A stretch of DNA of 64,000 bases from Styela clava (GCF_964204865.1 NC_135263.1:16926001-16990000); one strand, 5' to 3'; shown: positions 37,906 through 63,019, counted from the stretch's first letter. Program-made: numbers and translations. Notes: generated by a model not told the origin, from the letters alone.

Positions 37906-39131
37906 TTATTGGACACGAAATGGACATAACGATCGTTTCAATATTATGTTGGTCTTGTTGTTGTTCTTTGACACTTTTTGGACACCTAGTGGAAATATTA
38001 AAAAACCGCTTTTCTCTTTGATCACAGGACCGATTGCTTTGAAATTTTTAGTGGTTAAAGATGAAATTTTTCTCCAGAAGGCTATTACTTTTATTTATTT
38101 CAAATATTTCTGTTAGCTCTGTGAGATTTGTTTTTGTTTGCTATGACGTCACTGAACGTTCTGCGGACGCATATGCATGCACTCCTCTTTTTTGAACACG
38201 TGACATTGAACGTTGGCGTGACGGCGGATTCAGAAAGTCGTTGCAAATCGATTTCGAGGTTACCGGTGAATGGCGGTGATGCTAAAGGTACGGTAGACAG
38301 TACTGTACTGCTTCGCTTAGTGTGAATATATTTGTAGACGGAAGTTTAGAGGTACGGTAAACCGTACTTCACTGCTTCGCTTGGTGTGAATATATTTGTA
38401 GACTGTGGTCTAAAGATACGGTAAACCGTACCGGGACCTGTAGGCCTACCGGTACTGTACTGCTTCGCTTGGTGTGAATATATTTGTAGACCGTGGTCCT
38501 GTAGGCCTACCGGTACTGTACTGCTTCGCTTGGTGTGAATATATTTGTAGACTGTGGTATCTGCTGTTATAATACCGTGATAAATCGAATAAGTTAGTTT
38601 TGCTAATCGTCTGGCATTACAGGTGAGAGGGGGAATAGGGTGCGTATTTCCAATACGTCGATAATATCTTTGTCAACCAATTTGCGACCACTGTGTTTTT
38701 GTCTGTTTCATTGCTGTGATGTGGTGCTTTGTTTATTATTTGACCAGTTTTGTTCGAAATAACCGTGTTCTTAACATATATGACTGTCAGAAATGCAATT
38801 AGAAGCCCAATGTTTTTAAAGATAGAGAACTTCTGGTACCGTAACACAGCGCGGTGACACTGAACTAACTCGTAGCTGTCAAAAGCTTGAAAATCCATAC
38901 AAATATAAGAGATAAAAGGTTTTGCGTTTTTACATTTAAACGAGGGGGAATAGGGGGGTGCGCATTTCCAATACGTCGATAATATCTTTGTCAACCAATT
39001 TGCGACCGTGATTTTGTCTGTTTGATTGCTGTGATGGGGTGTGGTGCTTTGTTTATACAGGTACTGGTAAGTCATATGATTTTCGGGGAGTTATTTTGCG
39101 TGTCCATATATTTGAGCATTGCTCTCTTGTT
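37906..39131 (+). mobile_element. HINE family A copy carrying internal tandem repeats
   Basis: Same termini as 23625-23870. Four copies of ACTGCTTCGCTT(G/A)GTGTGAATATATTTGTAGAC at 38300-38555 and two ~110-bp repeats at ~38625 and ~38942. Confidence 0.75.
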
Positions 39132-39439
39132 ACACTTACTTTTAAAATCACTTCCGTGTATTTAGACCCGCAGGTATTCATTTGACTCTTATTTCTTTAT
39201 TTTTGATTGATTTGTGAATATTGAAAGAAACTTATTTGAGTTTTAATTAGGTACTGTAAATAGAAATAAAAAGTAATGGTGATATTAATGCACACGAAGA
39301 GAAATACATGATTTAAAAATATTCAGGAATAAGAAGCATGATATACGTACTTGTATCATCACATTATGAAACACAGAAATAAATGTAAAATCAAGTGAAA
39401 GATTGACGGTGAAATAAAATAACACACAGAAATTTATTT

Positions 39440-40576
39440 TGTTTTTATGTACTTTAAAGTTAACTTTAACTCCACCAGCAGGTTTTTTAGAGAAGAGGAC
39501 AGTTTGCATCCTGCTAAACGTGATATTCTGGTAAATATTTTGAAGTCCTTTAGCGGCAAATTTGAATGTATCAAAAATATGTTTTTGCACAAAGGCTCGA
39601 CTTTCGACTTTAAAAAGCCCCAGTGTGCGTTTATCGAACTTAAACTGTTTTATACAACATTCACGTGTATCGTCAAATGGTATTGTTTTTTTTTTATTAA
39701 AAATGAACTCGTGACGATGGGTTTCACAAGATTTGGAAGGAAACCACTTATGATAATTAATGTAAAATTGTTCTCGCATTTCTGGTTTTACCAAAATTTT
39801 TCAAATTTTTATTGGAAATAGCGGAATAACAGCTATCGATTCCCATTGACAAGTATTGATAGTCGGAAGAATGAAAGTATTTAGCAAAAAATTCATATTT
39901 CAGTTCTAACATGCGTAATTTTGCGACGACGAATCCAATCTGGTTGGGTAATTTCCACACAATCTGTTTTCTTTTTGAAGTTGGTTCAAATAAGTCGTCA
40001 CTAAGTTGAGTCGCTAACAAATGAAGGTTCATTGATCAGGTCGCGTGTTACATTACCATCACAGTATGCTATGTTACGGTAGTTCGCCAAAGTCTTTCCA
40101 TACGAAGAGTTCCCTGTAGATAGAAGGGTAGAATAAATAGTGAATAAAAATATTCACTAAGTATGAAACAAAACTTATTAATTATTTTTTAAATTATAAT
40201 TTTTATTTAAGTGTTACTAAATTTGTTATTAGTAAAATGAAACTTACAACTTATATGTATCAGCTAAAATTGCCTTTTCCGATGACATGTCACCATTTCC
40301 GCGAGCCATTGAAACTTCATTACAAAACGGCACGAAACATGCTTCGGGTTCATACTCGATAAATTGGTATATGTGGGTAATATGGAGATCGTGATCAAGA
40401 TACCATCGGACCAGGTCAGTGGCCAAAAGAATTTTATCACCAAAATAACTCCCTATAAGTGAACGTCTGGGCTGAGACATTGTTTTGTTATTAATCGCGT
40501 ACTGTCGCATAAGTTCACCGATATCGTCTCGATATACTAAAATATTTTTAAAAATTGGGGGCATTTCGCGAAGTCA
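39440..40576 (-). pseudogene. Protein-primed B-family DNA polymerase, C-terminal half, with intron ~40114-40247
   Basis: EMPPIFKN, RRSLIGS, ILLATDLVRWYL, motif B ADTYKL|GNSSYGK, LPNQIGF..AKLRMLE, motif C decayed to MGIDSCY, KRTLGLFKVE, AAKG. Confidence 0.9.
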
Positions 40577-40599
40577 TCGATACTGAAATATCAAATGAA

Positions 40600-40904
40600 A
40601 GCACGACCTTTTATCCGGAAAATCTGGACAACGGATAAGTATTGTTCCATTTTTCACACAAAAGGGGCAAAAGCTGTTGGTTCTGAAACTATTACATACT
40701 GGTGTTCGCATGGCCAGTGATGTACTGAATGGAAAAAGTATAAAGTCTTCCTTACGTGACCAGTCCAAACAAGCAGGTCGGAATTTATTAGGCAAAATTA
40801 CAGCACTTCCCAAGAGTATTAAAAGGAAGCGTAAATTGCAAATTGCCTTCAGTTCGAGACGACCTCGCAAACGCCAAAGAAAAGGGAGAGACATTTTCGA
40901 ATAA
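40600..40904 (+). pseudogene. Small basic Polinton core-like (DNA-condensing) protein remnant
   Basis: TGVRMASDVLNGKSIKSSL...KRKRK..RRPRKRQRKGRDIFE*, ending 1 nt before the capsid ATG, as is typical of Maverick gene order. Confidence 0.6.
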
Positions 40905-40905
40905 A

Positions 40906-43900
40906 ATGGCAAAACTTGTTCACGGTCTAAGCCCTGAGTGCGCTAAATCTGAAAGGTAACTAAACAGAACATCAATCAATCTCTACAATTAACCATGGTT
41001 CACCGATAGAATTTATTGTCCCGGCTGTTGATACTCAGTATCTCGATCTAGCGAATTCTCATCTCCACGTAAATATTAAAATTGTGACTGGTGATGGTAA
41101 TGATATCCCTGATGACGCCTTAGTAGCCCTATAGCAACTAACCACCAAATGTACCCCATTTCATGTTGATATCATCAAAACAAAGTTAATTTTTACCAAA
41201 ATTCGAACAAAGACTTTCGTTGGAATCAAATTACACCAGTTTTAAGAACCTAACATGTTCCACCCAGTCATCATCAAATTAAAATTTATATTCTCAAGAC
41301 CTTTGGAACTGATTGAAATAATTATATCTAAGTTTCCATCCGTACGATGTACATAATTACCCCTATTGAGATAATAGGAGTTTCTGTTTATAACGTGAAT
41401 CACGAACTCACGTTTACAGTATTTAATTAGATTTATGATCGACGTATAAATACGACTCGATATCTTTCAATGTTAAGCTAGTTTGGATAAATGTTTTAAG
41501 ATTTGTATTCTGTGTGTTGTGGAAATTTACGAATAAAAACATAAAAAGATTAATAACGTATCTTCATTCACGTGGGCGTGTAAGCTGAAGGGTGAACGGG
41601 TGACTTGCAAGTCAGAGACAATCTACAAATTAGCAATATACGGTGACATCACATTCATTTACCAATTATATGTATATGCTATAAATGGTGACAAAACCGA
41701 CTTGAATTAACCTTCTGAAACGGACCAGATTAACGGACAACAACCAGGACAGGCAACAATTGGATGGAATCAACCAAAAAAGCTGACCAAGCGAAAGATA
41801 AATTTCCTTTCCATCATCTAAAAACATATTAGTCGTTAATTGGGGCCATTGCTGATCTAATATCTGTTTTCTTTCGGCAGCTTTCAACAATTGCCGAGAA
41901 ACCGTTTCTACAAAACGTGCGAAAATCAAATTCGACCAACTTACGAACGTCGGGGAGATTCAAATTGCCTGGAACAACGATTGAAGTAGCAAATTGCTGA
42001 CAAGCCTAAATAATCAAAAGCATTATGAAAAGACAATAATCTCAATTGAAAGCAGTTGAACTATGGTAACGGACTCTGGAAACGTTAAAATCATGAATAT
42101 GGACTGTATTGAACATCGATCAAAATGAACTCTTTTAGAACATGATATATGTTCGAGGTGAAAACCCTGATCAAAAAACGAACTGTTGAAAACAATGAAC
42201 TATATGGACTGTTTTACGGTAAATCACGCGCTCTATTCCGAACAATAGAGAAATTATCGCGCATACCTAATGGATATACAGCTCAGGAGCATGGTATTTT
42301 ACAATTTGTTTCATGATTTGCAGGTTTTTCTCCTCATTGAGACAGACATTTTTCATTCTTCCACTATTACTACGATAAAGTACTTTTTTTATTCTTATAT
42401 ATACATGGCGTTTCGTTCGGCTTTCAATTTTTATAAATTAATTAATGGTAAGAGCTTTGAATATTCTAATTTCAAATATCTTTCAATAGATTTATATTAT
42501 TGAATATTTGTGGTTAGCATTCCTTTTCGATTAAATCGTTAGGATAAAAATGCTTTCTAAAAGTAGGTTCGAGCGAGTCATACTTTTAATTCTATACAAA
42601 GCCGTCATATAGAACGGTAAAATAATAAGCTCGTTTAACAAAAATTGTATCCAAAAGCGTTATTTTTTCAAAAAAGCTCTGAGATGGCATAAACTTACAA
42701 GCATATATTGACCAACTAGGTTTACAAAATCGTAACAATGCGATAAAGCGAGTATAAGTATTTTACCTTAGCGAAATACATTAAATTGAAAATATGTTTT
42801 AACCGTCCAAATCAAAATTTTTAAAATAGAAATACGCCATCCATCTGTAATTCTACTTTACCCTTTCTATAAACTCTTCTTTATTTCAATGTCTTGTCAC
42901 ATTGTAGATCATATACATGTAAATATTTTTTTGGCCTATAGCATTGTGTATTGTATTTTTCTATATATATTCAATTTATTAGAGGTGCCAAATCTTTAAA
43001 TTCCCAATTATCCGGAGGGGGAGATAATATAGCAACTAACCCCCAAATGTACCCCATTTCATGTTGAAATCATCAAAACAAAGTTAATTTTTCCCAAAAT
43101 TCGAACAAAGACTTTCGTAGGAATCAAATTACACCAGTTTTAAGAACATAACAGGTTCCACCCAGTCATTATCAAATTAAAATTTATATTCTCAAGACCT
43201 TTGGCACGGACTGAAATAATTATATCTAAGTTCCCATCCGTACGATGTACATAATTACCCTTATTGAGATAATAGGAGTTTCTGTTTATAACGTGAATCA
43301 CGAGCTCACGTTTACAGTATTTAATTAGATTTATGATCGATGTAAAAATACGACTCGATATCTTTCAATGTTGAGCTAGTTTGGATGAATGTTTTAAGAT
43401 TTGTTTTCTGTGTGTTGTGGAAATTTAGAGATTTTTAACGTATCTTCATTCACATGGGCGTTGAAGCTGAAGGGTGAACGGGTGACTTGCAAGTCAGAGA
43501 CAATCTACAAATTAGCAATATAAGGTGACATCATATTCATTTACCAATTATATATGCTATAGCCCCAGTTTCCAACTTTTCAAATTCAATGTGGAGACAG
43601 GTGGAAATTTCATTGAATGATGCAAATCTGAAAGGCAGTCACACAAACTACCCTTACCTAGACTACATTAACACTCTTCTCGAATTTGGCACGGAGGCTA
43701 AAAAATCGCAATTAAGCGGAGTTCTCTGGTTTCCTGAAAAGGCTTCACATTTTGAAGCTACTGGAAATGTAAACACAGGCTACCAGAAACGAAAATAATT
43801 CATCACTGGTAGTCGGAACTGTTGATATGGCTGGGAAATTATGTTCTGACAGATTTAATCAGTCAAGATATGTTAGTACCGAGTAGCGATGCATTTTGCT

Positions 43901-44575
43901 TACAGGCTGCTAACGCTGATACTGTCTACAAAGTAAAACTTTTAGATGTATCATTGTTCATAAGGCGGGTGGAAATAAGCCCTTCTGTTCAGCTGGGACG
44001 TAATACGGTGCTTAATACAAATAAAACGTGTATGTATCCAATTTCCAGGACCGAAGTTAAATATTTCTCAATCCCTCAAGGCGCTCTAAATGTTTCCAAT
44101 GAGAACTTATTTTCAGGGGTGTTACCCCATAAACTCATAATTGGTCTAGTGGACACTTTGAGCTATACTAATTCTATTACACACAACCCTTTCAATTTCA
44201 AACATTATGATACGAATTTTATTTGTTTGTATAAAAACGGAATTCAAATTCCGAGTACACCGCTAACCCCAGATTTTAAAATAGGAGATATATACGATGC
44301 TATCGATCACTTTTTCTCGGAACGCAAAGGTTTGGATTAGACGAGGGTATTCCTATTACACGAGAAGAATATCCCGGAGGAAATACACTACTTTGCTTCG
44401 ACTTGTCACCAGACTTGACATCGGGGATGACATTTGATTTAAAAGTGTATGGTTCATAAGGATCGAGATGAAATTTGCAAACCCTCTAAACAGACCCGTC
44501 ACCGCGATAATCTATAGTTAATTTGGCGCGTTAATAGAATTTGATCGAATGAGAAACGTGTATCCTGACTTTAAA
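40906..44575 (+). pseudogene. Polinton major capsid protein (hexon-like), interrupted by an LTR element at 41130-43561
   Basis: MAKLVHGLSPECAKSE, PIEFIVP..YLDLANSHLHV, QVEISLND..NYPYLDYINTLL, LFSGVLPHKLIIGLV..NPFNFKHY, CFDLSPD, IEFDRMRNV. Confidence 0.9.
41130..43561 (+). mobile_element. Full-length non-autonomous LTR element with TATAGCA...TGCTATA LTRs
   Basis: LTRs at 41130-41683 and 43028-43561, PBS-like TGGTGACAAAACCGAC at 41686, PPT GGAGGGGGAGA, and 4-bp TSD GCCC. Removing it restores the capsid frame LVAPVSNF. Confidence 0.92.
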
Positions 44576-44584
44576 TGGGTTAAA

Positions 44585-45038
44585 ATGAACACCGATGAAC
44601 TCGACTCCATATTACAAAATCATCCTGACACAAGGGGAATGATTTTAAAAATGATTGGACCAAATACCAAAGACCTAACCTCAAAAACCTTATGGATTCA
44701 TTATTATCAATACTGACCCAAGCGTGAAAGGTGGAAGCCACTGAGGATGCATATACGATGAGGGGGCGGACAAGCCAGAATATTTTGACAGTTTTGGAAT
44801 AATACCCTTCAAGCGAGCTTTTTTACAACTTTCTGGGTGATCATTTCAAGCTGAATACTAAGAGGTTACAATCTAACAAAGCAAAGGCTTGTGGCCAATA
44901 CTGCATTTACTTTTAATAAAACGTTGTCAAGGACTTTCTATGAAATCTATTGTGAACCACTTTGGGGATAATTATGCAGAAAATGATATAGCAGTTTTCA
45001 AGTATATACAACAAATTCAGAACCTTAAATTTAAATAA
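44585..45038 (+). pseudogene. Adenain-type cysteine maturation protease
   Basis: MNTDELDSIL..., IINTDPSVKGGSH*, EYFDSFG, RLQS..ACGQYC (His/Asp/Gln/Cys set). Stops and frameshifts. Confidence 0.9.
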
Positions 45039-45199
45039 ATTAAACACGGTACTTAGGATTCTTATCAGCTCTCAGTGGCATTACTTACAAGTCTTCTTCC
45101 ATTAACATGTGAATATGAACACACCTGCAATTTATTCTTTTTTATAAAAGTTCATATCATATACTTCATAATTCTAAAAAAACTATTTCTTCATTATTT

Positions 45200-45663
45200 G
45201 AGAACAATTTTACATTAATTATCATAATTGGTTTCCTTCCAAATCTTGTGAAACCAATCGTCACGGGTTCATTTTTAATGCAACAAACCTGTTACCATTT
45301 GACGATACACGTGAATGTTGTATAAAACAGTTTAAGTTCGATAAACGCACACCGGGGTTTTTTAAAGTCGAATTTTCTGGAGATACTTTTGTGGGCCTTT
45401 GTGCAAAAACATATTTTTGTCAAGGTAATAATACATTCGAATTTGCCGCTAAAGGACTTCAAAATATTCACCAGAATATCACGTTTAGCAAGATGCAAAA
45501 TGTTCTATTCTTTGAAAAACCTGCGGGTGGAGTTAACATTAACTTTGAAGTACATAAAAACAAAATATTTACCTATAAACAGTATCGAAATGCTATGCTT
45601 TACTTCTACGGGAAACGAAGAGTTCATAATGATGAAATTTCAACCAGTCCCTTGTTAATTTAA
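45200..45663 (+). pseudogene. Second, inverted copy of the pPolB C-terminus (~150 codons)
   Basis: EQFYINYHNWFPSKSCE...KRTPGFFKVEFSGDTFVGLCAKTYF..AAKG..YFYGKRRV..TSPLLI*. Reverse complement of ~39440-39776. Confidence 0.9.
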
Positions 45664-46449: not shown

Positions 46450-48153
46450 AACGTCTTCTTATTCAAACCAATAAATTAGCCTGAAATATATAAATAAGGC
46501 TATACCTTTTCTATTCATTCGTTATCTGCTGGGGTGAGCTCTTCCATAACTGAGTCAGAGGGAATTCGTGTGCTGGGTTAAACTTTAGTTAACCGATAAG
46601 AAGTTTTAAGCGGGCCATTATCACTCTGCGATCTCGGATTCGACAATTGGTTACATTTTCAACGTAAAGATTGACTATGGCAATCTATATTTGGACTTCC
46701 ACCCGGCGTTACGAAGACTATGACGATGTATTCGTAAATATATACAATTGCAATACATGTTATTCGAAACTATGAACATGTCCTTGTCGGATCAGACAAA
46801 CACTGGTTTGTTTAGCTAGCCAACAACCAAAAATTAATTACTTTACTGAATCCTACATTGGTGACCCGGCAAACGAACTGCGCCTTGCGAAAAAGAGTCA
46901 GAACATCAACCGCTGGAAAGGTGACCCCGAGAATATCAACTAAACAAGCCGAGGGTAAGATGAAAAAAAAAAATAATTCGATACCAATCAAAATTCAGAC
47001 CGTGCGATTAACCAAGGAATAAGAGCAAAAAACAGGGCGTAAGCAACTATCACAGAAAAAGTTATATTAAAAAATGTGTGTAAAACATTCACACGTTTGG
47101 ACTGGTATATTTAAAGAAATGTGTGCAACGCAATCGCACTATAACGAATGTTTTTATACCCGAGAAAAAACCGTTATAATTAAAAACTAGTCAGACAGAA
47201 AGAAATGAAAGTATGAAACGCAAAGAACTTCAGAAATAAATGCCCACGAATGAACCTGAAAGAAATCGCGCGATCATTACAGTATACTATTGTATTTTAT
47301 TATTTTCAATTTCGTGTACAAAGTGGACAAAGTTCTTCTTATTTCATATTTTCTTCTTTCTAATCATAACGGTCAAAACAATCTTACAAAAGCTTTGATG
47401 TATTTTCATAAACGCATGTAAAATCTTCATTTTTTCAAAACCCAAATAGCTTTATCATTTTTCACAGCAGCCAGCAAGACAATGAGTGATTTTTTTTCAG
47501 CGCTTCAAAATTTATTGATGTAAATGAGGTGTATTAGAGCGAAGCATTTGTAGTTATCTGTCAGCTGAATTAAAAAAATTACCTAACGCCAACCCTTTTC
47601 TTATTTAAAAACAGCATAACACACACCCACACATTCTTTCTCATAATCATAATTTCATCTTTATGTTTTTATAAATTTTGTTACATTTCGTGTATTTCTT
47701 TTTTCACTGCACGCACGAGCTTGGTCACTGTTCCGCATTAGTAGCAGAGGCATTATATAGGATATTGGGTAATTTATCTGCCTTTGGTGAGTAACTCAAA
47801 GTTATCCTAATCTTTCGCGGACAATAAAATTAGAAGCACGTACAGAGTAATAAAAGTGGCAATTAGACGACCTGTAGGCTGCAATGACATGCCATCGGGA
47901 TACCGAAACAAGGTAATGAATGACCACTCGTTAGGCGGGAAAAGGGATGATTTTGAACAGTGGGTAGCTGGAACAATTAACAACTCGACATGCGTGAAGT
48001 GTAATTTCGGATTTTGTCTGGCTTATCAGCCGGAATTGTTCATCTGTATACGTAAATATATACAATTCTATAGTATGTTTTGTAAATTATGAATATGTCT
48101 TTGTCAGAATCAAGTTTAGCCAACAACTTGAAATAACTTTATTAAACCCTACA
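46450..48153 (+). mobile_element. Non-coding LTR element related to 35140-37230
   Basis: LTR end TCCTACA (46857), PBS TGGTGACCCGG, internal region colinear with 35565-37020, purine run ~47933-47947, and 3' repeat ending CCCTACA (48153). Left boundary is approximate. Confidence 0.6.
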
Positions 48154-48485: not shown

Positions 48486-49846
48486 CGACAGCACCTTCTG
48501 AAAAGAGGAGACAGATTTGCGCAACGGAGAACTGTAACAAAGTCAACGGAGCAACGAAGTTGCTGACAGACATAAGTGGCAAATAGCTGACAGACAGTAA
48601 GTGGCAAATAAAATACCAAGGCGACAATACAATAATTTAACTTGAAGGACTTTTAGACAATGGTATACGGAAACAGGTGGATGGAAGAACTCTTTTGAAC
48701 AAAAATGAGAAAAATCGATGACGAATTAACCAAATGATGACATAACAAAGAACGAAATCTCAATGCAACAAGGCATTATAACACGCGCTTTAACGAAATA
48801 TTAACGCGACAAGAGACGGAACCAACGAACATTCGAGTGCATGTTATATTTTTCACTGTCATAATTCCGATTTATTTTATCTATTGTAGATTTATCTTGT
48901 TGGGACATGCTTCCCTGTTCTTTTGATCTCAAGGTAAAAATCCCATTTCTTATGCTATGGCGTTTAATTACTTGACATTCGTGTCAACCATCCTATATAA
49001 ACGGTAAAATAACTCTTTAATATTATTCACTGGTTTTATCGTGTAACTATATTCTTCCCTGTGCCGCCGTAATACAACAACAAAAAGGTCGGTGACTTTG
49101 TTATTTTTTTCGTTGTCTGCAGGGCCAAGCTCTGCTCTAACCGAGTCAGAGGGAATTCGTGTGCTGGGTTAAACTCCTAGTTAACCGAGAGTTTTTGTCT
49201 ATAACTAAGCTCTATTTAGGATTGCTTTTAAAATAACAAGAATTCTACAAATTTGGTGGCGCCAACAATTGAATACAGCGTTTTTGAGAAGAACAGATCA
49301 GCGGAGGAACACAGATCAACTCAGAATCTCAAAAAAAAAAAAAAAACAGAAGAACTCAAGATAGGTAAGTTTCACGTTTAATATTAAGTGGCATATTATA
49401 CGGGCATGCTTATCTAATAGATCTCCTATCTTCTAATAGTTATCGCCTTTTTTTCACGATTATCAACGAAAACTAAAACTCTACAACATCGACAAGAGAA
49501 TCCGGTTCAACGATTATTGACACGAAGAAGACGAAATCGCCTAAGGACATTTCTACGGACATTCTTTATTTCACTGAATTTACTGCATTTTAATAATTAG
49601 TATGTACTGCAATTTTCTTTCCTATTTCTTCTATATTTCCCATGAGGATTAGTGTCTTCCCATTTGATTTATTTAAAAAGTCCAAATCTTGTTTAGCTCC
49701 AACTGATAAGAGTAGTAATTTACCTAAGCCAGAAGACGTATTAAAACCACCTTTAATAATTAAAGCTCAGTTGCCCGATAATCATAATATGCAATCAACT
49801 AAACAATCGTCTAAATCGTCGCCTAGCCAAATTTATGATTTATTCG

Positions 49847-51803
49847 TGTGGTAGTATTTATTCCGCGTGTTTTTGATGCTTTTGTTTTCTTGTTTTTGTA
49901 ATTTGTTTTGATTATTATTGCTGTGTTACATAATGATTTAACGCCGAACGCGAGGATGAGAAGAGATCGTCTGCCACGTTTTGGGCGGTTACAGACAGTC
50001 GAGTTTTGTGTTTCGTGTGAGCAGTTCATGTTGAACTCATTTCACTTTGGGTTGATTTATTGCTGTTTTTAAAAAAAGAAATAAAGCCGCAGTCAAACCT
50101 CGGATCTTCTGTTTTTATCGTGGCAGATTTTTTGTAAAGTATAGGAAGAAAAAGCTACGACAAAATTGGCGGTCACGCCAGGATCCATAATTTGTGCGAA
50201 TTATTGATATAACGAAACGAAAAGGAACTTTTTATTGGCACCTCCACGAGGGGGGTGATTTTGACGAATTTATCAGAAGATTTCAGTATTCGATGTGATA
50301 GGACTAAAACAAATTCTTTATTGGCGATTCGTAATTTAACTTCTGGACAGTGTCTCATCATGGCGCCCACCTCTTTTACTGCAGGAGGCCTCTATATTCC
50401 GAAAGAGGAACATGTGAATGATGATGAATTATATTATCAGCGAGGTTGGTGAATATGTTCATCTTAATGGTCGTATGGGACGTTGTGGAAATTCGAAAAT
50501 GTATCAAATTGGTCCGGTCGTTCGTGAAGGTTCTCGCGCATGCACAGCAGAAAGTTCCCGACTGCATGGGTGATGGCATACTACATGATATTAATGGTCG
50601 TTTGAATACTCCCGTTGTATTGCTATGTCAAAGGTAGCAAATTTATCGTCCGGTTGTTCGTGAACTTTCTCGCGCATGCACAGCAAGAAGTTCTTGACTA
50701 CATGGTCAGTAGCATATGGTGAAGGTGCTATGGATACCAGTTTAGATCCAAAGGATGGAGAAAGTTGGGTACTCGGGACAAAAGAAGAACGGGCGGTGTT
50801 GACTATAGTCGTGCCAATGGAGACACTCTACTAGATTACGTCAATAGCAGAGTAGCTTCTACGTCAAACCTCAGGCTTCGATGATGATGACAATTGGGAG
50901 TAAAACCTGCATCTATTGATATGCATATTCCGATGTAAATAGATTTGAGCGCTGTCGAAATTCAGACATATCGTTTTATGTTATCAACGGGGGCATGTCT
51001 CAGCCCTTTAATTACGTTATGGTCGCTTCATAACTGAAATGAGCTGAACTATATTCTTGTTGTGAATAAGTGTATAATTTGAGTTGTGTTAAGGTGTTTT
51101 AACCAAGTTCTCGTGACCTAAAATGACTGCGATTTATTTTAACTGTTTTTATACGACTTGGTAGTTTTGTTGTTCACGAGTGTTCAGATTTCAAATTCAT
51201 AAGTAGTTTAATTCTAGTGTATATATATGTAAAGCACTAGTTTCTTATTTCGTTTTGAAGAGAATTTTTGTGTTTGGTTCACTCCTGTCTGTAGTTTGTA
51301 CCCCTGTTTGTACATTTTTTTGTGTTTATCAAGCATGGTAGGGAGGGCATATGTGTATAGAACTAATTTTTTTATTTCGTTTGGAGTCCGATCTTTGTGT
51401 GACTTTAGTATTTGAGTCTTGGTATTTTTTGATATTTTGTGTGTACAGCATGACCAGGAGGTCATGATATTTTAAGGGAGGGACTGTGTGATAGTAATTA
51501 TTCCGCGTGCGTGCTTTTGATGCTTTTGTTTTCATGTTTTTGTAATTTGTTTTAATTATCATTGCTGTGTTACATAATGATTTAACGCCGAACGCGAAGA
51601 TGAGAAGGGATCGTCTGCCACGTTCTGGGCGGTGACAGACAGTCGAGGTTTGTGTTTCGTGTTAGTGTTCATGTTGAACTCATTTCACTTTAAGTTGATT
51701 TATCGCTGTTTTTAAAAAAGTAATAAAGCCGCAGTCGAGCCTCGGATCTTCTGTTTTTATCGTGGCAGATGTTTTTTGAAGTATGACAAAAAAAGCTGCG
51801 ACA
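49847..51803 (+). mobile_element. Non-autonomous LTR element nested in gag
   Basis: ~316-bp LTRs at 49847-50162 and ~51487-51803 (TGTG...GACA), PBS TGGCGGTCACGCCAGG, PPT AAGGGAGGGA, and flanks TTCG/GTCG. Excision restores the gag frame YDLFEPIP. Confidence 0.88.
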
Positions 51804-54454
51804 GTCGAACCTATACCTTCGTCGTCGTAACCCTTACCACATTTTAAAGCCAATGATCGCGAGACTATTAAAATCCCGCAATTTTGGGTTCACTCTCCCC
51901 TTTAATGGATTCGATGTGTCGAATCTGCTTCTTCAAGAGCTGATATTACATCAGAAACGAGAATGTTTAATGAGGTGAGCTGTTCTTGATAGTTCAATTA
52001 TTAAAAAAAAATAGGGGCGGATTTGTTAGACATATGCGCTACAAATCCGTATACAAAACTTAAAAGGGCCTGGTAAAAAACTATGCACCGACAGAAGACC
52101 AAATGCTTTCATCATTTCTTAACTCAGAGGATTTAGGTAACCAATTGCCGTCAGACTTACTAAAAAAGTTATAGTTACTTATGAATCCAGATCATAGATG
52201 TGACCCTTTTGCTCGTGCTTTACCTAAAGTTTTTTTTTTGGAGAAATTGCCAATTCGAGATCTGAAATCAGTATTTTGCCATCACGTAAATATGCCGTTA
52301 AGTGAAAGTGTCATAAAACTTTACAAGCAATAAATGGTACTTCAATATCTACCTTTGGTAAATTACGTTTAGTTTTAACTTTCAACCATGATGTACTATT
52401 ACCGTGATCATTTAAGATAGCTGATGTGCCAATGCCAATTAAAGGAAATGTTTATTTAACACATTATGGACTTCTAATTGATTTTAAAAATAAGGTTGTA
52501 ATAGACCCACTTGTTGCGCTCGATTCTATGTAGCCTGGTTACTTCTCACGCACAGGAGATTGGAGACTTCAAAAACCCGTCCCAATAACTCAGTCCCGAC
52601 CCCAAACTTATATCGGTTATTTGTTACAACTAGTCCATGCTTTCAAGCAATTAAGAGTCTGTACACGGCCGGTTAAAGTGCCCCCAAATTCTTCTGTGCC
52701 TTTCAAGTGCTGCCCCAATATAACAATTTAGTGGCGACAATTTAGAATTCCCGGGATGAATAGAGAAACTTCTTAAACAGGACTGTGTCGCAATAATGCT
52801 GCGTCGATACCTTTGCAACGTCTACGTAACAACGTAAAACGTCATCAAAATAGAAACAAGTTATGATTCTCGCTAACACCACTTTCTTAAAACATTATAA
52901 GAACAACTACCGGTAATTTAAATTCGGTTTCAGCATTCCCCTCCGTCTAATAATAATGATGAATATGAAGCCTTATTTAAATAAATTTCCACAGATATTA
53001 ATAGTAGATTATAAGTCGCCGAAGCGTAAACATGTTAGCCATAGAATAGTTACGCCCGGATTCCCAGTCCTTGCGAAACCGCGACGCTTAGCGCCATTAA
53101 AAGCCGCCGCCGTTAAAGCCCAAATTAATAAAATGTTGGACCAAGGAGTCGTATCGCCCTCTAGCGAAGAGTGGTCATTATCCATCACAGCAGTCCTTGA
53201 AAAAAATGGGGATATAACCCAGACCATTATCGTTTGTGTGGTGACTTTAGATTATTGAACCTACAGACTTAAGAAGAATACTTATCCAATGCGCCACATT
53301 CAATCTTTTACCAATGAAGTTAGGGGATGTACTGTTTTTACAAAAATTGACTTAAAATCGGCTTATTTCCAAATTCCATTACACCCTGATAGGCGAAAAA
53401 TCTGCGATTACTACGGGGTTTAACAAGGTTGAATGGAACGTCATGTACTTTGGTCCATCGAACAGCCAGGCCAGTTTTCAGAGGCTAATAGATGATGGTA
53501 CTAGACAATTAACCAATGTATTTGCATATGTAGATGATATTCTTGTGTATAGTAAAACTGTAGACTAGCATAAGCAACGTTTGCATGAATTATTCGATCG
53601 CTCAAGAGAAAAATAGGGACCCAGAAGTACAGGCGCAATTAGCTAATCCAAGGAGTTCACAATTAGACTTTGTTGATACCTCAGTTCCAGGATTAACTTT
53701 GATTTGTGATTCTAAATTACTCAATAAGAAACCAGTCATACCTAAGAAATTTAGTCAACAGATTTGACTCATTGCATACCCTCAGCCACCCGGGAATTAA
53801 AACTACTCGGCATTTAATTCAAGCTAGATATGCATGGCCAAATATGAATTCGGATATTGGGAAAATGTGTCGTCGAGCTTGTATCCCATGCCAGAAATCT
53901 GAAGTAACGAGGTATACCATTTCCCCAATACAACCTATTTTAGCTCCTAATCCAAATTTAAGTTTCGTTTTGTTAGGGATAGGCACGGCAATAAAATTAG
54001 ATTTAGGTTTATCCTCGGCGGAATTAGTTTACGGATTGTCGTTACGTTTACCTTGGGATTTTTTTCAAACGATATGAATTAGGAAATAGAGTCTCCTAAT
54101 GAGTTTATATCGCGTCTTAGACAATTCGTCCAAGAGTTGAGACCAACCAACCCAAGAATTTCACAAAATAGAAAAACCTTTTATATCTGAGGAATTAAAA
54201 GATTGCACCCATATATTTTTACGTGTTGATGCAGTTAAAAAACCCTTAATACCGCTTTATATTGGTCCATTTCAAGTGTTGGAAAAGCATGCAAAATACT
54301 ATAAACTAGATATTAATGGTAATCCACAAACTGAGCCGAGTACTGAAACAGCGTTATTGTTTTTAAACAGGCTTGAACCGCCAACAACGCTTTCCGGCAG
54401 GGCGACACGCCAGAATCGCCAGCATGAATACGTTCATTATTAATTTGATATTAA

Positions 54455-56353
54455 ATGTACCGGTATGTATTAACTCTTATGCTTTTACTCTTAAATCCCC
54501 TAGCCCAACATTATCAGTAAACTTTTGTGATCCAAGGTACCTGTAGCAGAATACTCCATACCGGAACCACCCATTTGTAAAAGAAATATTATCACCCGCG
54601 TAGATTATTGCAATGCCACCGTACATAAATTATCGTCATAATATTGTGTGCATCTGCCAAAAATCTGTTACTGAATGGCAGGCGACTAGATTATTTTTCA
54701 GTTCGATTTATGACAAATCGAAATATGAGATTGCTTGATCTTTCGACTCCCTTATATTGCCAAGATTGGGTGCACTCTTTTAAGGCTGAAAACATAGGTG
54801 ATCTGAAATCAACCTTAAAAAACACTTGGGTCCACTAATAATGAAGTAGAATACGAATATAAGTGGCCAAAAACGACAACTGGAAAAGTTTTTAATGCAC
54901 ATTTAGCTCTCACTACAATTTACTACAATCATATTAAAGATATTCTTTTAGGTCCATTTTCAGGATTATCCACTTGTAGTATTAATTCGTGATCTTGTAC
55001 TGTAGTTACTCAAACAATTATTTGGAAAAATTACCCATTGATAGATAGATGAAAATTTTAATTCGAAAATGGCATTGCATTATAATACGTCAGGTGGAAT
55101 TTACCGATTAGATTTTCCGGAATTGGGGGCTAGCATCCACCAGTAGGGTTCATGTAGTGCCTATGTTCAAAGATGTTTTATTACAAAAACATTTTGCACA
55201 AATAATGGACTTTTATTTGAAACGCACCAATGTAACTCATTGAAAGTTGCTGGATTCATCAATTCCAAATATTCAAAACTCAGGAATAGTTTCGTAGTGG
55301 TGGATTCTGTTTCCAGCACTCTCACTGGCTTTATTCAGAAAAATACTGACAGGATAACCGAGGTAATTGTCGATTTATCGTCAGACACCAATTGTGTCAA
55401 CTGGAAAGTATTCTAACCCGAATATATAAAACTCTTAGCAAACAATATCCAGGTAAAATTTTAAATGAAGTATTAGGAGGCAAGCACGCTACTATAATGG
55501 TAGGGAATATCATCACAGAAATACACTGAGAATATAAATGTTACTATATTATATTACTATCATTATATTATAATAACAATACGTGTGCTACAAGGCCACT
55601 CGTGACGTTTCTGAACAAAAATAATGATACCATAGTTGCGCAGATAATTACAGATACGAATGTCTACGCGGGAATACACTTTTTTGAAAACTTCGTTTCT
55701 GGACGAACGTTTACTTTTTCAATCAATGGACGATATTATACTTATATAAATTACACTGTAACTTATACAAATGCCCACATACAAGCTTTACAGTCTACTT
55801 TAACAAAAATCAATAAAAATTTTAAGCCATTGGAATATCAAAAGATATTCAAATATTAAAAGATATTCCAAGATATGCCCCATGGAGGACAGTCCGGCTT
55901 CGAAGATTTTTATAATATTCTAATTTCGATCAATCATTTGAACTTGGTCAAAGAAAAGATATTATTGCAACACAAGCTGTCCTTCAAAGCCAATACTAAC
56001 AATAAATTAATATAAACAAAAACAAAGTGGAAGACAACCGATTTTATCCACCTTATACATGCTAGCATGGCACGTAGCTTAAGTTTTGGAGTATTGTATT
56101 GACCATACTCTTCCTAAAGCGTATGATACCAATACTAAGAACCTCAACAACGCCGGTATATAAAAGAGCTAGGCAATTTTGGGTAGATTTTAGAAACCCC
56201 ACTCAGGAGCTTAATCCTGTAGAACCTGGCCCAGACTCAAATAGAACAAAATTAGAAGACACGGAGACTGTTGTATTATACATGTCCCCCATACTTCCAA
56301 TAACCCACCCAATCTATAACCCACTCTTCCTTCTTGAAATTTTCACCTCTTGA
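54455..56353 (+). pseudogene. env: Class III (herpesvirus gB-like) envelope glycoprotein
   Basis: Signal-like MYRYVLTLMLLLLNPLA, VNFCD..YSIPEPPIC, ATRLFFS, YKWPKTTTG, CSINSxSCTVVTQTIIW, LCQLE..LSKQYPGKILNEVLGGKHATIMVGNIITEI, TCATRPLVTF..AQI..FSINGRYYTYINY, and hydrophobic FWSIVLTILFL plus tail. Confidence 0.8.
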
Positions 56354-57399
56354 TGTTTTTCTTATTTAAAATGTAAATATTTTGTTTTGGTGAATAAATA
56401 CTTACTTCGAAAAAAAAAAATGAAAACAAAAAACTATATATTGGTTTCATTGCTATGATCTTTGTTTTTTTGTTATTGAAAATTGAATTACTATTTTATC
56501 ATCAGGGATAACCTTAAATTCAGTCAATTTATTATGGTATAATTTCAGTGTTAACTAACAATTTTATGTTTTTTTTTGTTATTATTTTGTAAAGATCTGT
56601 ACAATTTTAAAAACGGTATTATGCCGAAAGCCCCAACTCCGTTTTTAGGGCCGAATTATTAAGTAGGGATATTAGCCAATCAGACCATGTTTTTAACAGT
56701 TAAAAAAAAAAGATAATATCTAATTAGCTCATTATTTCTTCTAAATTTGAAAAAAGTAATACCGAAACAATTTGACGTTAAATACATAATTGGTTTTCAG
56801 AATAACCACGTCAGTTGAAACAAGTTCTTGCCCTCGAGCAAAACCGCGCTGGGAAAGCCAGTTTTTAATTGCCCTGGTAACTTGTATCAAACTAGATAAT
56901 TGGTCCACTGACGCCTTTCTAAATCGGTTTAGAAGAATTACGAAGATATAATTGAGGACTTTAATTTAGTTTAATATAAATGGTACCGCGTAAGAAGCCA
57001 TCGCCTGAAGGCATGACATTCGTGTCGACCATCTTATATAAACGGTAAAATAACCCTTTAAGATTATTTACTGGTTTGATCGTGTAACTATATTCTTCTG
57101 TGTGTCGTCGTAATACAACAAGAAAAAGTTGGTGACTTTGTTATTTACTCGTAGTCGGCTGGGTTAAGCTCTGCCCTAACTGAGTCAAAGGGAATTCGTG
57201 TGCTGAGTTAAACTCTAGTTAACCGAGATTTTGTGCTTTTAACTAAGCTCTATTTAGAATTGCTTTAAAGATAACAAGCATCCTACACGAGTGTATTCAA
57301 ACAAATAATAAAAAGAAGATAGATAAAACGCACCGACTGGCGTCAGGTCACACCAGATTCTTCAGCAATTACGGATTGGAGTCCAAGTACCCGAGAGAT

Positions 57400-57940
57400 C
57401 ATCATAAACATGTTTATATGCAACCTGGTCGATGTTTGCATCGACAAGCGATTGAGAACACAATTGGAAACTCATGTTTACAAACATAAAGTTAGTCGAA
57501 CAGGACGCGCTGACAGACAACTTCGATAAATTAATGATATATGGACGAATAGGAAATTTTCAAGCGAGCGCATATCGAACTCGGAAAGGCAATAAATAGC
57601 CCGGTGCCCTAATCAGGGCTATGTTAGGAGGAAACAGGACAGCTGTATAACATTTGGAGATCTCCTGCTATCGATAGCACGTGAAAAAATAAATGTTACA
57701 CTTGTTCCACATTTGCATTACGACAGTCTGTTCGCTGGCAAGTACACCGACGAGCGATATGATCGCTCAAATGTTCTCATACGAAAAGCCCATACTGGCG
57801 CTTATTTTATCGAACATTATTACCTCGGCCGAACGTTCACTTTTAATACCGGCCAAAGTTTTATAAATACTTATTTATACTACACTCTGGCACAGCACAA
57901 GTCAACGCCAGAGTCCTATCGTTGCGCCTTTATCTGACTC
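57400..57940 (+). pseudogene. env: Second, divergent gB-like env fragment
   Basis: PGALIRAMLGGNRTA..FGDLLLSIAREKINVTLVPHLHYDSLFA and GAYFIEHYYLGRTFTFN..YLYYTL align with 55440-55770. Confidence 0.65.
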
Positions 57941-58340
57941 GTATAATTGCGAGTTGCGAACCAAACTTACGTCGATTGTTTACTTTACCTCGTGACACGA
58001 ATTGCAAAGATGAGATTAATGTGCTTCTTTCAATGGCGTACACAAACGTAATTAAAGCTCTCAATTCAGTACGTCAACATCAGACTTCGTAATACTTTGG
58101 AGCACGCCCTTTCATTCCTTACACAGACATCGTCGCTATTTGATATTTTAGACATTTCGCTATTTGATTAAGTTTGCAGATGTTAGTGTAACCTTTGGTT
58201 AGAATTAAAGTACTATAGCCTAATACCTTCGATACTACTGTACTATCATCCAACGGATTATAACTTCAATATTATACTGACTTGAACTTTGCCTGAATTA
58301 CTACCACCTTTCAATCAATCTTTTACACGGTACCGTTTCA

Positions 58341-59066
58341 ACCACTATCAAGACAGCAGGATGAATAACGAAGCCCAAAACCAGCTTCTGGCCGCTGTCG
58401 CATCAGTCCAGGACGATCAAAAAAAGCTGTTGGAACGATCGGAGGAACTGTCAGCCACAGAAGATCATGGCAACAGATCTGAAGATATCAAAAAGTTCCA
58501 GCAGGATGTAGCCCTGATCTCCCCTAAGATCGAGGAGATTTTGAAGAGAATGGAGATTTTGGAAAAACAGCAGGATGACTTAGAACAGTACGGCCGAAGA
58601 AACTGTATAATTCTTCATGGCTGCAAATCCGTGCCAGAAACGAAATACGATCAGTTCGAGGACTTCGTTATAAAATCCCTTAACAGCAACTTGAAGCTTG
58701 AGAGTCCTATTGTCAAATTTGATATTGACATTACCTATAAGTTGAGATCAAAATCCCCGAAGAACCCTATCATTATTAAATTTGTCAGAAGATCGACAAA
58801 AAATTTAATATATGGTAGGAAAAAAGACCTGAAAGGTAGCGGTTTGTCCATCACGGAGTCCTTGACCCGTAGTAGGCTCAAGCCGCTCACCGCTGCCAAA
58901 GAGGCCCTTCGGGAAGCACAAAGTGTCAACAATGAATGGGACTATCTACGCGTACTTGGACAGAAGGCGAGTTATATCTTGTTTAAATGATATCACTACT
59001 CTATCTCGTCCCCTGTACTCCAGGGCTGCTGCTCGTCTAATGGGGCTTAGCAAACAGGCTCACTGA
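58341..59066 (+). CDS. LINE ORF1 (coiled coil plus RRM, L1-ORF1p-like), frameshifted near end
   Basis: Heptad region, then DDLEQYGRRNCIILHG, IDITYKL, PIIIKFVRR, LSITESLT. Confidence 0.85.
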
Positions 59067-59300
59067 ATGCACCCTAGTCCTTTTGGCAGAGTGGTGGCCT
59101 ACAGGAGTGAAGGGGAATAAATACTCATCTTCAAATTTTTAATTTTCTCTGTCGAATAGGCCAGTACTTATCTAACTATAAGTTCTACATCTTTGTCTGG
59201 AAATTCAGTATTTTAACACTAGACTTTACTTCTTTACATTTTTATACTTTTTTATATCTATTTTATTTTTTGCCACAAACCGCCCACAACCATAAAACAT

Positions 59301-62300
59301 ATGAAATATCCATGTAGAAATTGCCACAAATCAGTCCGAACAAATCAGAAAGCTATTTTTTGCAATATTTGTTCTTATTGGATACATTTAAAATGCACTA
59401 ATATCTCTGGACAGCAATATGAAAACCTGCAATCTGAAGCTGATGAAATGCCTTGGTGCTGTTTCCTTTGTAAAAAAGAATGTTTACCATTCTCTTCTAT
59501 CTCTGATTCTGAAATACCAAAATTATTTTCTACTTTTCACTCAGAAAAAGCTAATGCCCAGACTCTTACAAAAATACTTAATCCTGAATACCTCAACCAA
59601 ATTTTTCTTGAGTCAACCAATACTGACACTAAAGAATTCATCAACATAGACAGTGTTTTCATGTACAATAGCTCAAATCAGTATATTTGCTCCAGTGATG
59701 TCAATGACCTTAAATTCAATGATAGTCTAAAACTAAGTGGCTTCAGGACTCTTTCAATCAATATCCGATCTTTAGCCTCCTTCAAAAACTACACAAAATT
59801 TGAAGCACTAGTAAATTCACTGAATTGTAAGCCACATGTAATTGCTATAAATGAAACACGGATTGTATCTGATACAAATGGCCACTTCAATGCATTGGAT
59901 GGATATGTTTTCATCTCTAATAGTAGATCTCATCACCGAGGTGGTGCTGTTGGTCTGTACATTCGAAATGACCTGAAATACATTGTCCGTAAGGATCTCA
60001 CTATCATATGCGAGAAGGTTTTTGAACCCATATTTATTGACATATCATTAGAAAATAAAACAATAACCTGCGGTACTATATATAGATCACCACTAACTGA
60101 TGAATTGAACAATGCTAACTTTAGACATCTTTTGTCCCAAGTTCTCTCAAAGATGAACAGGTCGAATTATAATTATATAATGGGTGATTTCAACTATAAA
60201 CTTATTGATGAGTCCAATATGAATACCAGCCTATTTGTTGATATTATGCAGTCTGGCCTATTATTCTCTGATAAACTGTCCCACCAGGATAACTTCAAGT
60301 TCTGCTACCTGTATAGACCACATCTGGACAAACGTATATGATAAAAAAAATTAACAGTGCTGTTTTAGCAGAATGTATTTCTGATCATTTGCCAATTGTA
60401 CAATGCTCTCTCCTAGAAAAGCAAATCCAAAACAGAATTGAAACACTTCGTCGCCAATTTACTTCGTCCAACTTGAATACTTTTATAAATGAATTGAATT
60501 GATATTGAAGACTTAAACAGCACACAGGATCCAAACATATGCTTTGAAAAATGTTTTGATAAATTCTCTACTGTTTACTCTCAGTCTTTTCCTTACAGAA
60601 CACAAACAAACAGATTAAACAAACTTTGGTATGATACTGGGTTACGCAAACTCAACAGAGTCAAACACAAACTTTATAAGAAATTAATAAACAACTAGAG
60701 CTGCGGGCAGCTTTAACAGGCTTCCCGCGTAAAAAAAACTGAAGACGCGTTTTGCTCACTGGAGCGTGAAAGCGTGGTCAGTCATGCATGCAATTTATGA
60801 TGGAGGACTTATTATCTGCATGTGATGTAAATTTCAAGTCTCTAAGTAGTGTCGTTCTCGAGAAGATGAAAATGTAAAATCCTATATTGCTCACTGGAGC
60901 GTATCGCCGAGGTCACTCATGCGTATCCTTGACATATCGTATCCGGAACATGTCCATTAATCATTGTTATGAATTTCAACCCAATAGCATGTATCAATTT
61001 TGAGAAATCGCAAAAAAACTGAAGACGCGTTTTGCTCACTGGAGCGGGAAAGCGTGGTCAGTCATGCATAATATTTGCATTTTATTGCTAGCTGAGAACT
61101 TCTGCACATTTGAGGTGAATTTCAAGTTTGTAGGACCAATTTGAAAAAAAAATAATAAAAATAAATAAATAAATAATAATAAAACACAGGAATACAATAG
61201 GTTCCCTGCTGACAAGCAGCGGGACGCCTAATAAAAACATAGATGACAAACACAAGTCACATTATAATGAATGCAGGAATCTTTATGCTCGACTTCTCCA
61301 TAAAAAGAAATCAAGTTATTATATGTCCAAATTTGCCTCTCCCAAAGGCAACATTAAGGCAGTATGGAAAACAATTAATGAACTAATCGGTAAAAATAAA
61401 AACAAGGACTTGAATGCAGTAATACACAAATTGCAAATAAATTTAATGAACACTTTTCCCAAGTGGCACAAAGATTGCTCGACAATATGCCACAACCAGC
61501 TAGCTGTGACAAAAATTACATTTCATATCTTGGGAAGCAAGAATCGTCATCCATGTTTTTAAGGCCTACTACAGCATTAGAAATAAAAAATATCATACGC
61601 GAAATGAAGCCCAAGTCAAGTTTTGGAATCGATGGTATACTATTCAAAATATTGAAATATATTCCAGAACACATCACTGATATTCTGGCATACATATTCA
61701 ATCTCTCACTATCTACTGGATTATTCATTGGAAGTTTCAAGACATCTAAAGTTCTTCCTCTCTTTAAAAAGGGTAGTGTCTCAGATCTTGGGAACTATAG
61801 ACCTATATTAGTCTTCTACCGTCGTTTTCTAGGATTGTCAAACTACTTTGAAACCAACAATGTTTTCCACTCGCATCAATTCGGTTTCCGCAAGCAACAC
61901 TCAACTGCTATGGCTGCTAATGTTTTGGTACACAAACTAACCAAGGCTTTTGAAGGCAAACAACATGCAATTGGAATATTCCTTGATATTTCAAAAGCTT
62001 TTGACACCATTGACCATTCCATCCTTTTAAGTAAGCTCTATCACTATGGAATTAGATTCAATTGGATCAGGAGCTACCTGCAAGACAGAAAACAAATTGT
62101 GCAATATGACAATTCATTCTCTACAAATATTTGTGTCATGAAGCACGGAGTTCCTCAAGGATCTTTACTTGGTCCAGATATGTCCAGGTGTCTGGAATCC
62201 TCTGAGTCAATCATGTTTGCTGATGACACTGACTTGATTCTTCATGGGGAAAACCTTGAAGATCTGTTCACAGTTGCAAACTACGAACTAGCCAACATTC

Positions 62301-63019
62301 ATAGCTGGATGTTAGTTAATAAATTATCTCTTAATGCTAACAAGACTAAATTTGTATTATTCCATCCAAGCAAGCATAAAAGTGTGAGTTGTACAAAACC
62401 ACTGCTGCTCAATGGCAATGAAATTGAAAGAGTGAAAGAAATACAATTTCTAGGAGTTATCTTCGATGAAAATCTGTCTTGGAAATCACACATATTGCAT
62501 GTCATTAGTAAAACAAAAAGAAACTTGGCAGTTACTGCCAAAGTATCCCAGTGTGTTAATCAATCAGCTTTACTAGCAATGTTTCAATCATTACTACTCA
62601 GCCATATCCGATATTGTTGCTCAGTCTGGCTCCATGGTAATAAAACACTTGTCTCAAAATTGCAAAGTATTTGTAATAATTTAAGAATTCTTTTTAGGAA
62701 AGTGTAAACCATTTCTATAAAAAAGCTAAATATACTCAAAGTTGAAGATATAATGAAATTTGAAGTATTATCATTAGTCCATGATTTCCATAGCAATTCC
62801 TTGCCAAACTGCTTCGACGACACACTAACTAAAATTACTTCCAATCGAAGAAGTAGTTCCAACCTGTTCATACCTTTTATGAGTACATCTGTGAGCCAAC
62901 ATGCCTTATGTTATACTGTGCCCAAGCTGTGGAATTCTCTCCCCTTGAATTTGAAGACATTAAAATCCAAAAAATCTTTTCAGAAAAAAGTCAAGTCCTA
63001 CTTGGTATCAAAATATTAA
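59301..63019 (+). mobile_element. CR1/L2-group LINE ORF2 (PHD-APE-RT), decayed
   Basis: PHD (CRNC..CNIC..HLKC..CFLC), APE (NIRS, AINET, GGAVGLY, IYRSP, MGDFN, SDHLP), and RT (NYRPI, QFGFR, FLDISKAFD, GVPQGS, FADDT, FLGV). Frameshifts and a deletion after GSLLGP. Confidence 0.95.
60694..61232 (-). mobile_element. Non-autonomous Helentron/Helitron2-type element (family C) inserted in the LINE
   Basis: On the minus strand: 5' ATTAGGCGTCCCGC, partner GCGGGAAGCCT near the 3' end, hairpin AGCTGC-CC-GCAGCT then CTAG. Inserted in a T-run. Internal ~57-bp repeat at 60731 and 61012. Confidence 0.75.

Follow-up and report, generated by a model that had tools for sequence, protein, structure and literature searches.

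We report that the genome of the ascidian Styela clava holds Ty3/Gypsy elements with a third gene, env, predicted to encode a class III fusion protein of the herpesvirus glycoprotein B (gB) type. The analysis departs from a 64,000-nt stretch of this genome (GCF_964204865.1 NC_135263.1:16926001-16990000; hereafter the window, whose coordinates are used throughout), in which nucleotides 48975-57287 constitute an old, dead Ty3/Gypsy insertion carrying an env gene, and extends to its young, open relatives in the same assembly. These are long terminal repeat (LTR) retrotransposons with a CsRn1-type gag, and their young open copies probably use Env to fuse particles with neighbouring cells and thereby reach the germ line. 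The combination of a gB-type env with Ty3/Gypsy has already been published for ascidians; what is new is that this species, previously recorded as lacking intact copies, harbours young ones, and that sister lineages continued to multiply after losing or deleting env.

An initial annotation of the window had placed a Gypsy element at this position, with a frameshifted third open reading frame (ORF) behind integrase. The element is indeed present, with reverse transcriptase (RT) and integrase zinc-finger remnants upstream of env and direct repeats bounding it, and both peptides quoted from its third ORF (LSKQYPGKILNEVLGGKHATIMVGNIITEI and TCATRPLVTF) are found in one window frame, the second following the first after a stop codon. 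The bounds proposed for the ORF (54455-56353) have to be revised, with a start codon at 54424 and a stop at about 56337, and the damage is heavier than a frameshifted ORF would imply. Searched by tblastn with an open sister protein, the gene falls into seven pieces (54421-56334; frames 1, 2, 3, 1, 3, 2, 1), and over 612 paired codons of 647 it shows five stops at homologous codons and 14 indels, ten of them frame-shifting, in addition to the deletions in pol; 13 of its 15 cysteine codons are kept. Its recognizable parts are as follows.

54424..56337, plus strand: broken class III (gB-type) env gene, from tblastn with the open sister protein, codon comparison and Pfam pieces
~54424-54486, plus strand: signal peptide
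~54688-54702, plus strand: putative fusion loop
~55321-55445, plus strand: long core helix
~55587-55604, plus strand: ATRPLV
~56030-56122, plus strand: membrane-proximal and transmembrane region

Even in this state the window frame 55368-55856, with an X at its one stop, matches Pfam Glycoprotein_B (E 7.1e-6), as does a stop-free piece of 109 aa by itself (E 2e-4); a gB match was absent in three of the five window env pieces scanned with Pfam. The peptide TCATRPLVTF had been likened to CYSRPLVTF of gB. The (A/S)TRP(L/I)V motif is conserved, but at the Cys position 11 of 12 natural relatives (alignment A2) have Tyr, so that homology of the shared Cys was dropped and the Cys of the window copy is probably a chance substitution.

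Open natural copies from the same genome, the search for which had been suggested at the outset, were found and used to analyze the protein (at least 39 matches by DNA search and at least 75 by protein search). The open family-A protein P0001 spans 646 aa from its Met, with 15 cysteines, eight N-glycosylation sequons, a hydrophobic N-terminus and one C-terminal hydrophobic segment, and the hydropathy peaks of open env lie at the N-terminus and at residues ~556-575. Open copies therefore carry the features of a signal peptide and a transmembrane anchor in a third ORF behind pol and within the LTRs. The ectodomain measures ~510-530 aa and has no furin-type RxK/RR site in families A, B and D, and the aromatic loop motif is conserved in all eight alignment A2 rows that cover it and also in copy L121. 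Database searches yielded four env relatives among 7896 candidates, all labelled Styela clava (the best 99% identical), in agreement with the non-vertebrate chordate host proposed by the initial annotation; word-based protein searches recovered only the same four proteins. The env frames P0003-P0006 (C1, C13, C14, C17) are annotated by the National Center for Biotechnology Information (NCBI) as uncharacterized host proteins; they are element genes and a probable cause of false 'domesticated gB' annotations.

Profile and structure searches returned matches to class III fusogens, as had been anticipated. P0001 matches Pfam Glycoprotein_B with E 7.6e-8 over residues 309-455, a second open query does so with E 2.5e-7, and five of 12 alignment members match it (best E 1.5e-10). 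A profile built from 12 sequences of the genome's env families gave 23 matches at E<=1 among Protein Data Bank (PDB) sequences, 22 of them herpesvirus gB, led by cytomegalovirus (HCMV) gB (E 2.1e-10), and the 44-residue Cys-Cys spacing of env aligned without gaps to pseudorabies gB. We take the disulfides of herpes simplex virus 1 (HSV-1) gB to be 116-573 and 133-529, with spacings of 17 and 44 residues that equal those of env C34-C51 and C332-C376; a paper search gave no confirmation of these positions. An AlphaFold model from four sequences was discarded (predicted local distance difference test, pLDDT, 30). With a weak model from 12 sequences, whose core helix spans residues 285-328, all 32 rows listed by Foldseek against PDB are gB (best E 3.9e-12, ~620 columns). 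Against viral models Foldseek lists rhabdo-like, nyami-, chu-like and herpesvirus glycoproteins in mixed order from E 1.5e-11 (Beihai rhabdo-like virus 3), and Atlas is topped by Monjiviricetes_fusion clusters (0.97). VIA-align places four gB chains on top (Z 8.0-7.1; best root-mean-square deviation 8.6 over 218 aligned residues), followed by pleckstrin homology (PH) domains and rhabdovirus G. It also recovers the PH fold at residues 34-265 (Z 5-6.6) and suggests that N- and C-terminal env segments pair as in gB domain IV; the fusion domain of the same weak model has pLDDT 33-40. A PF24664 search of the genome gave no match, and neither did its positive control. Taken together, profiles and models indicate a third ORF that encodes a class III fusogen of gB type, with no trace of a specific herpesvirus donor.

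The env genes of the genome fall into families whose proteins are 29-74% identical to one another. Relative to family A, the window's kin (83% DNA identity to the window copy), protein identity is 72% for A2, 52% for B and ~30% for C and D; cysteine spacing is almost fixed across the families, down to 29% identity, and env always lies behind a related pol in all five. Many copies are intact. Env lacks stops and frameshifts in all four full-length family-A matches and in nine of 14 family-B copies, lesions being present in the other five. Of the five family-B elements fetched whole, two combine a pair of LTRs with three full open frames. Among family-A copies, one keeps all three frames open but lacks the 5' LTR, and a second is flanked by both LTRs but has its pol split. 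In each of the six young elements measured, the two LTRs are separated by 0-3 differences over 501-728 nt, some copies having identical LTRs, while those of the window element are only 87.5% identical, from which it follows that its insertion is much older.

Purifying selection acts on env (dN/dS 0.16-0.29). The ratio is 0.285 between the window copy and open copy A, 0.175 between A and A2, and 0.161 between A and B, where dS is saturating. With the LTR distance halved, ~0.07 of the dN of 0.097 of the window copy would be attributable to neutral decay after insertion. Shared variants among near-identical copies point in the same direction, with pN/pS of 0.28 in A (three nonsynonymous, three synonymous) and 0.22 in B (eight and ten). 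It is on this selection on env that the reading of the window lineage as once infectious, put forward in the initial annotation, would have to be based.

The RT tree, ((A,A2),B),F | C,D, and the env tree, (A,A2,B) | (C,D), are concordant (11 and 7 rows, midpoint root, with a long-branch warning for C with D), and the env-less families G, H and I are more distant, outside F and the env families in the RT tree. An ORF between integrase and the 3' LTR had been expected in intact relatives; it is found in families A, A2 and B, whereas more distant sister lineages lack env or have it deleted. In family D (L058-L068, L071, L072, L077, L113; integrase search), nine of 11 loci share two env deletions, which in the 2103-nt open frame of L113 correspond to ~nt 429-687 and 1015-1808; of the other two loci, one is full length and one gave no env match. 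The LTRs of one env-deleted copy differ at 3 of 501 sites, and the deleted loci form a subfamily that continued to multiply after the loss. In family F (L073, L074, L081) a CsRn1-type pol ends ~20 nt before a 3' LTR of 208-212 nt, leaving no env. Because F is sister to the env-bearing A+B in the RT tree (97/96), env was probably lost in this family. Three loci consisting of LTR and env only (L031, L037, L038) were considered as retrotransposed spliced RNAs and dropped: the junctions vary from copy to copy and are located within the LTR and, in part, within env, and in two of the three a short stretch of sequence is common to both sides of the join, which fits deletions instead.

The life cycle suggested by these genes would proceed along the following lines. 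Relative to gag, pol is in the -1 frame, with GGGAAAA in the overlap, and Gag-Pol would arise from a -1 frameshift. Translation of Env would begin at a separate ATG that overlaps the final pol codons, most likely on a spliced RNA; a pyrimidine-rich acceptor-like site lies ~55 nt upstream of the env ATG in the window copy, L032, L033 and L035, also inside the integrase coding sequence. The protein is predicted to be glycosylated and trimeric, to insert its aromatic hairpin (RFFFG) into the target membrane and to refold like gB and rhabdovirus G, for which the class III refolding route is established. As no gene for a gH/gL partner is present in the element, it probably fuses alone and is probably triggered after uptake. 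Spread would likely run from soma to germ line within one animal, by analogy with Drosophila gypsy, and env would have been inherited with pol over a long time and lost more than once by lineages now copying inside cells. A more ambitious picture, which we regard as unlikely but worth stating, is that of living infectious Gypsy retroviruses in sea squirts with a stand-alone gB-type fusogen and no gH/gL, a single genome holding env-intact (A, B), env-deleted (D, lacking fusion loop and core), env-less (F) and fossil copies, and some of the intact ones perhaps moving between animals via seawater.

Several observations weigh against an active fusogen in young copies. The Glycoprotein_B score of P0001 (32.5 bits) lies below the curated cut-off of 43 and covers only residues 309-455. 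The 12-sequence AlphaFold model has a mean pLDDT of 47, a predicted template modelling (pTM) score of 0.29 and values of 33-40 in domain I; template modelling (TM) scores in Foldseek are 0.2-0.3, a Z of 8.0 is a level that VIA-align itself calls common, and the Atlas recognition value of 1544 is below its threshold. The variant counts behind pN/pS among near-identical copies are small, and multiplication without env is evident in the young-looking deleted loci of family D (nine of 11) and in env-less family F. A donor-like AG/GTAAG occurs in the leader of the window copy only and not in L032, L033 or L126 (same pattern), so that the splice step is weakly supported; of 14 sequencing runs that contain the DNA, none is recorded as RNA.

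Alternative explanations can be weighed against the same data. It is improbable that the families are horizontally infectious retroviruses passing between animals through seawater or gametes with a real class III protein, although intact env in many very young copies, complete gag-pol-env elements with two LTRs and the co-occurrence of four env families in one genome would all suit such agents. Low-sensitivity searches of viral and metagenome contigs confirmed none of 9 and none of 192 pattern matches, the only protein relatives are the four labelled Styela clava, and the divergence of families in which env follows pol fits long residence; the accessible part of PMC13524379 likewise argues for mostly vertical descent. 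Marginally less probable is a protein that no longer drives spread, either as a passenger staying open through youth or in another role such as blocking the entry of related elements. The abundance of young env-deleted D and env-less F copies, and the lesions already present in family B, are what a passenger would lead one to expect, but dN/dS of 0.16-0.18 on long branches with saturating synonymous change, and a cysteine scaffold unchanged across families at 29% identity, require long selection on the protein, and the shared variants of young copies are still biased to synonymous change. Recent capture of gB proper from a herpesvirus is very improbable: herpesvirus gB supplies the top Pfam and PDB sequence matches, but the match covers only ~150 residues, structure alignments show 12-21% identity, PF00606 stays below its gathering score, the gB PH1 and PH2 domains (PF17416/PF17417) have no match at E<=1 in open env, the RNA-virus glycoproteins score about equally well and top the Atlas list, and three further ascidian genera have an env with this scaffold. 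The gB-type capture proposed by the initial annotation thus stands as to type and not as to source, and env is not demonstrably herpes-derived. We therefore retain the reading of LTR retrotransposons whose young copies probably spread by means of Env.

The lineage of the element is indicated by its gag and pol. In L032, pol presents the Ty3/Gypsy order protease-RT-RNase H-integrase (RVP 42-121, RVT_1 241-400, RNase H 469-599, H2C2 684-739, rve 760-851), and the window remnants follow the same order. Open gag matches Pfam DUF7041 (E 6e-13) and has no CCHC; it carries the CHCC motif CX2HX9CX3C, exact in families A, B and C and with one extra residue in D, a signature that defines the CsRn1 clade in the accessible part of PMC2582038. 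The nearest named pol matches are tapeworm, fluke, whipworm and pseudoscorpion proteins (47-50%). Gag signature and nearest named matches together suggest a CsRn1-type gag-pol, and it is this type that the env families follow.

The remainder of the window element is made up of the following parts.

48975..49249, plus strand: 5' LTR remnant retaining ~275 nt at the 3' end of a ~625 nt LTR, with the 5' part and the target-site duplication (TSD) gone
49254..49265, plus strand: primer-binding-site-like TGGTGGCGCCAA, immediately 3' of the LTR, with 3/12 mismatches (by-eye count) to a tRNA-Trp site listed in supplement 1 of PMC13524379, a source seen in part
49311..49846, plus strand: leader and 5' part of gag, decayed, 83% DNA identity to sister copy L032
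49847..51803, plus strand: nested non-coding LTR element within gag, with its own ~318 nt LTRs (89.7% identical) and TSD TTCG/GTCG
51804..52251, plus strand: remaining gag capsid region, decayed, 86% to L032
52253..52511, plus strand: protease remnant, 91% to L032 3446-3705
52512..52878, plus strand: solo-LTR-like insert with TGTT...AACA ends and CCACT on each side
52879..53597, plus strand: reverse transcriptase remnant with YVDD kept, RVT_1 E 4.6e-7, two stops and five frameshifts
53593..54443, plus strand: integrase remnants (zinc finger and C-terminal part), Integrase_H2C2 E 1e-11, SH3_Tf2-1 E 0.006
56662..57287, plus strand: full 3' LTR, 75.5% to the L033 LTR over 617 columns, ending in CTACA

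Of the element bounds first proposed, the 3' end at 57287 holds; the real LTR measures ~625-631 nt and only its last 275 nt survive on the 5' side; this remnant is 87.5% identical to 57015-57287 over 272 columns (Kimura two-parameter distance 0.138) and could be a product of recombination. The full length of 631 nt is taken from the complete sister copy L033 (one mismatch between LTRs, TSD GGCCT); the TSD of the window element is lost. In their paired LTRs with TG...CA-type ends, primer site and TSD, the elements conform to Ty3/Gypsy LTR retrotransposons. Relative to an open copy, deletions have removed ~598 nt (the gag C-terminus with the CHCC motif and the protease start), ~783 nt after the RT remnant (RT thumb/RNase H) and ~373 nt comprising most of the integrase catalytic core, and these pol deletions, together with the stops and frameshifts in env, mean that the copy is dead. 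The inserts at 49847-51803 and 52512-52878 postdate its own insertion. The former (~2 kb, of non-autonomous type) has 49 matches genome-wide and no tblastx match among eight fetched gypsy elements; outside the window it occurs as two near-full copies and as numerous solo LTRs. A 91-nt LTR fragment of the same family as the main element lies 2.4 kb upstream of it (46506-46596).

Further elements and relics lie in the surrounding sequence. Directly behind the 3' LTR (57490-58060) lies a second gB-type env relic of an unrelated family, which forms its own small group of ~8 decayed loci in the genome, with no long open frame in the five examined.

57632..57931, plus strand: part of this relic, outside the element; the end of the core helix and the domain IV region of a gB-type env more distant than that of the element, 33% to the env of family A (E 4e-8)

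A decayed gag-pol of another env-less Gypsy family (24826-29243) is 60-75% identical to family G (L078), and a non-LTR retrotransposon (58286-62707) retains an ORF1-like frame, a PHD finger, an endonuclease (E 1.5e-4) and an RT (E 6.5e-23). Short frames at 38617-45663 resemble, by eye, what we take to be Polinton/Maverick polymerase and capsid pieces; three of these frames were scanned and gave no Pfam match. The window holds no tRNA genes.

The window copy is a fossil that points to this system of younger copies, whose added value lies in the presence of env-intact and env-lost sister families in one genome. PMC13524379 names as still open how gB-type retroelement envelopes achieve entry without the helper proteins of herpesviruses. 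Styela clava, from the sister group of vertebrates, is common and easy to keep, and its genome pairs young families whose env is intact with sister families whose env is deleted, so that soma versus germ-line expression and the need for env can be compared directly.

Among known systems, gB-type env is described on Ty3/Gypsy elements across animals (Chary & Hayashi, eLife RP108449, PMC13524379), including nine elements of cysteine type C3 whose hosts are the ascidians Ascidia mentula, Aplidium turbinatum and Clavelina lepadiformis. With these HSV/gB-type 'ancient errantiviruses' the present elements share the gag-pol-env organization of Ty3/Gypsy in an ascidian, a gB-type env, and the aromatic (Y/F)FFG and WP(T/S) motifs. 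The ten domain I-II cysteines of P0001 have the spacing of Clep_errantivirus_1 (19,34,72,7,17,38,7,7,12), one gap differing (40) in Amen_errantivirus_1, with the published rows counted by eye; families A and B agree with P0001, and C and D are off by 1-3 residues in three gaps. Unlike the C3 elements, those studied here reside in a host with another order-level label, Styela clava, the window copy is dead while relatives are intact (two of five family-B elements fetched whole), and env loss in sister lineages is documented. In a table of PMC13524379, Styela clava, with an assembly of 340 Mb, has the entry 'yes - No intact copies', whereas the 377 Mb assembly used here contains open copies. The term 'Styela' occurs once in seven of its supplementary files, whose remaining rows could hold more on the species, and a search for papers dealing with Styela copies of such elements, or with env on tunicate elements of CsRn1 type, found none beyond PMC13524379 in a coverage that leaves out most subscription literature. 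With the CsRn1 clade (CsRn1, PwRn1, AgCR; PMC2582038, seen in part) the elements share the exact CHCC gag, the -1 gag/pol overlap, a 4-5 nt TSD and, in family F, a tRNA-Trp-like primer site as an exact 12-mer; they differ in the degenerate primer site of family A (3-4 mismatches in the window copy and L033, counted by eye) and in possessing env, none being reported for the elements of that paper in the part consulted. With herpesvirus gB and mononegaviral-jingchuviral G, Env shares sequence matches in the core helix and domain IV and a putative PH-like domain; unlike herpesvirus gB, it has a shorter ectodomain, no furin-type site (A, B, D) and no CYSRP Cys, and the element has no gH/gL/gD genes. 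In Drosophila gypsy/ZAM, env-bearing lineages infect the germ line from the soma, while lineages derived from them have dropped env and multiply within the germ line (Senti et al., PMC12992720, accessible part). The envelope of those elements is of F type (class I), they form part of a different Gypsy branch, and the cycle shown there is inferred here, but families D and F of Styela clava appear to resemble their env-less derivatives.

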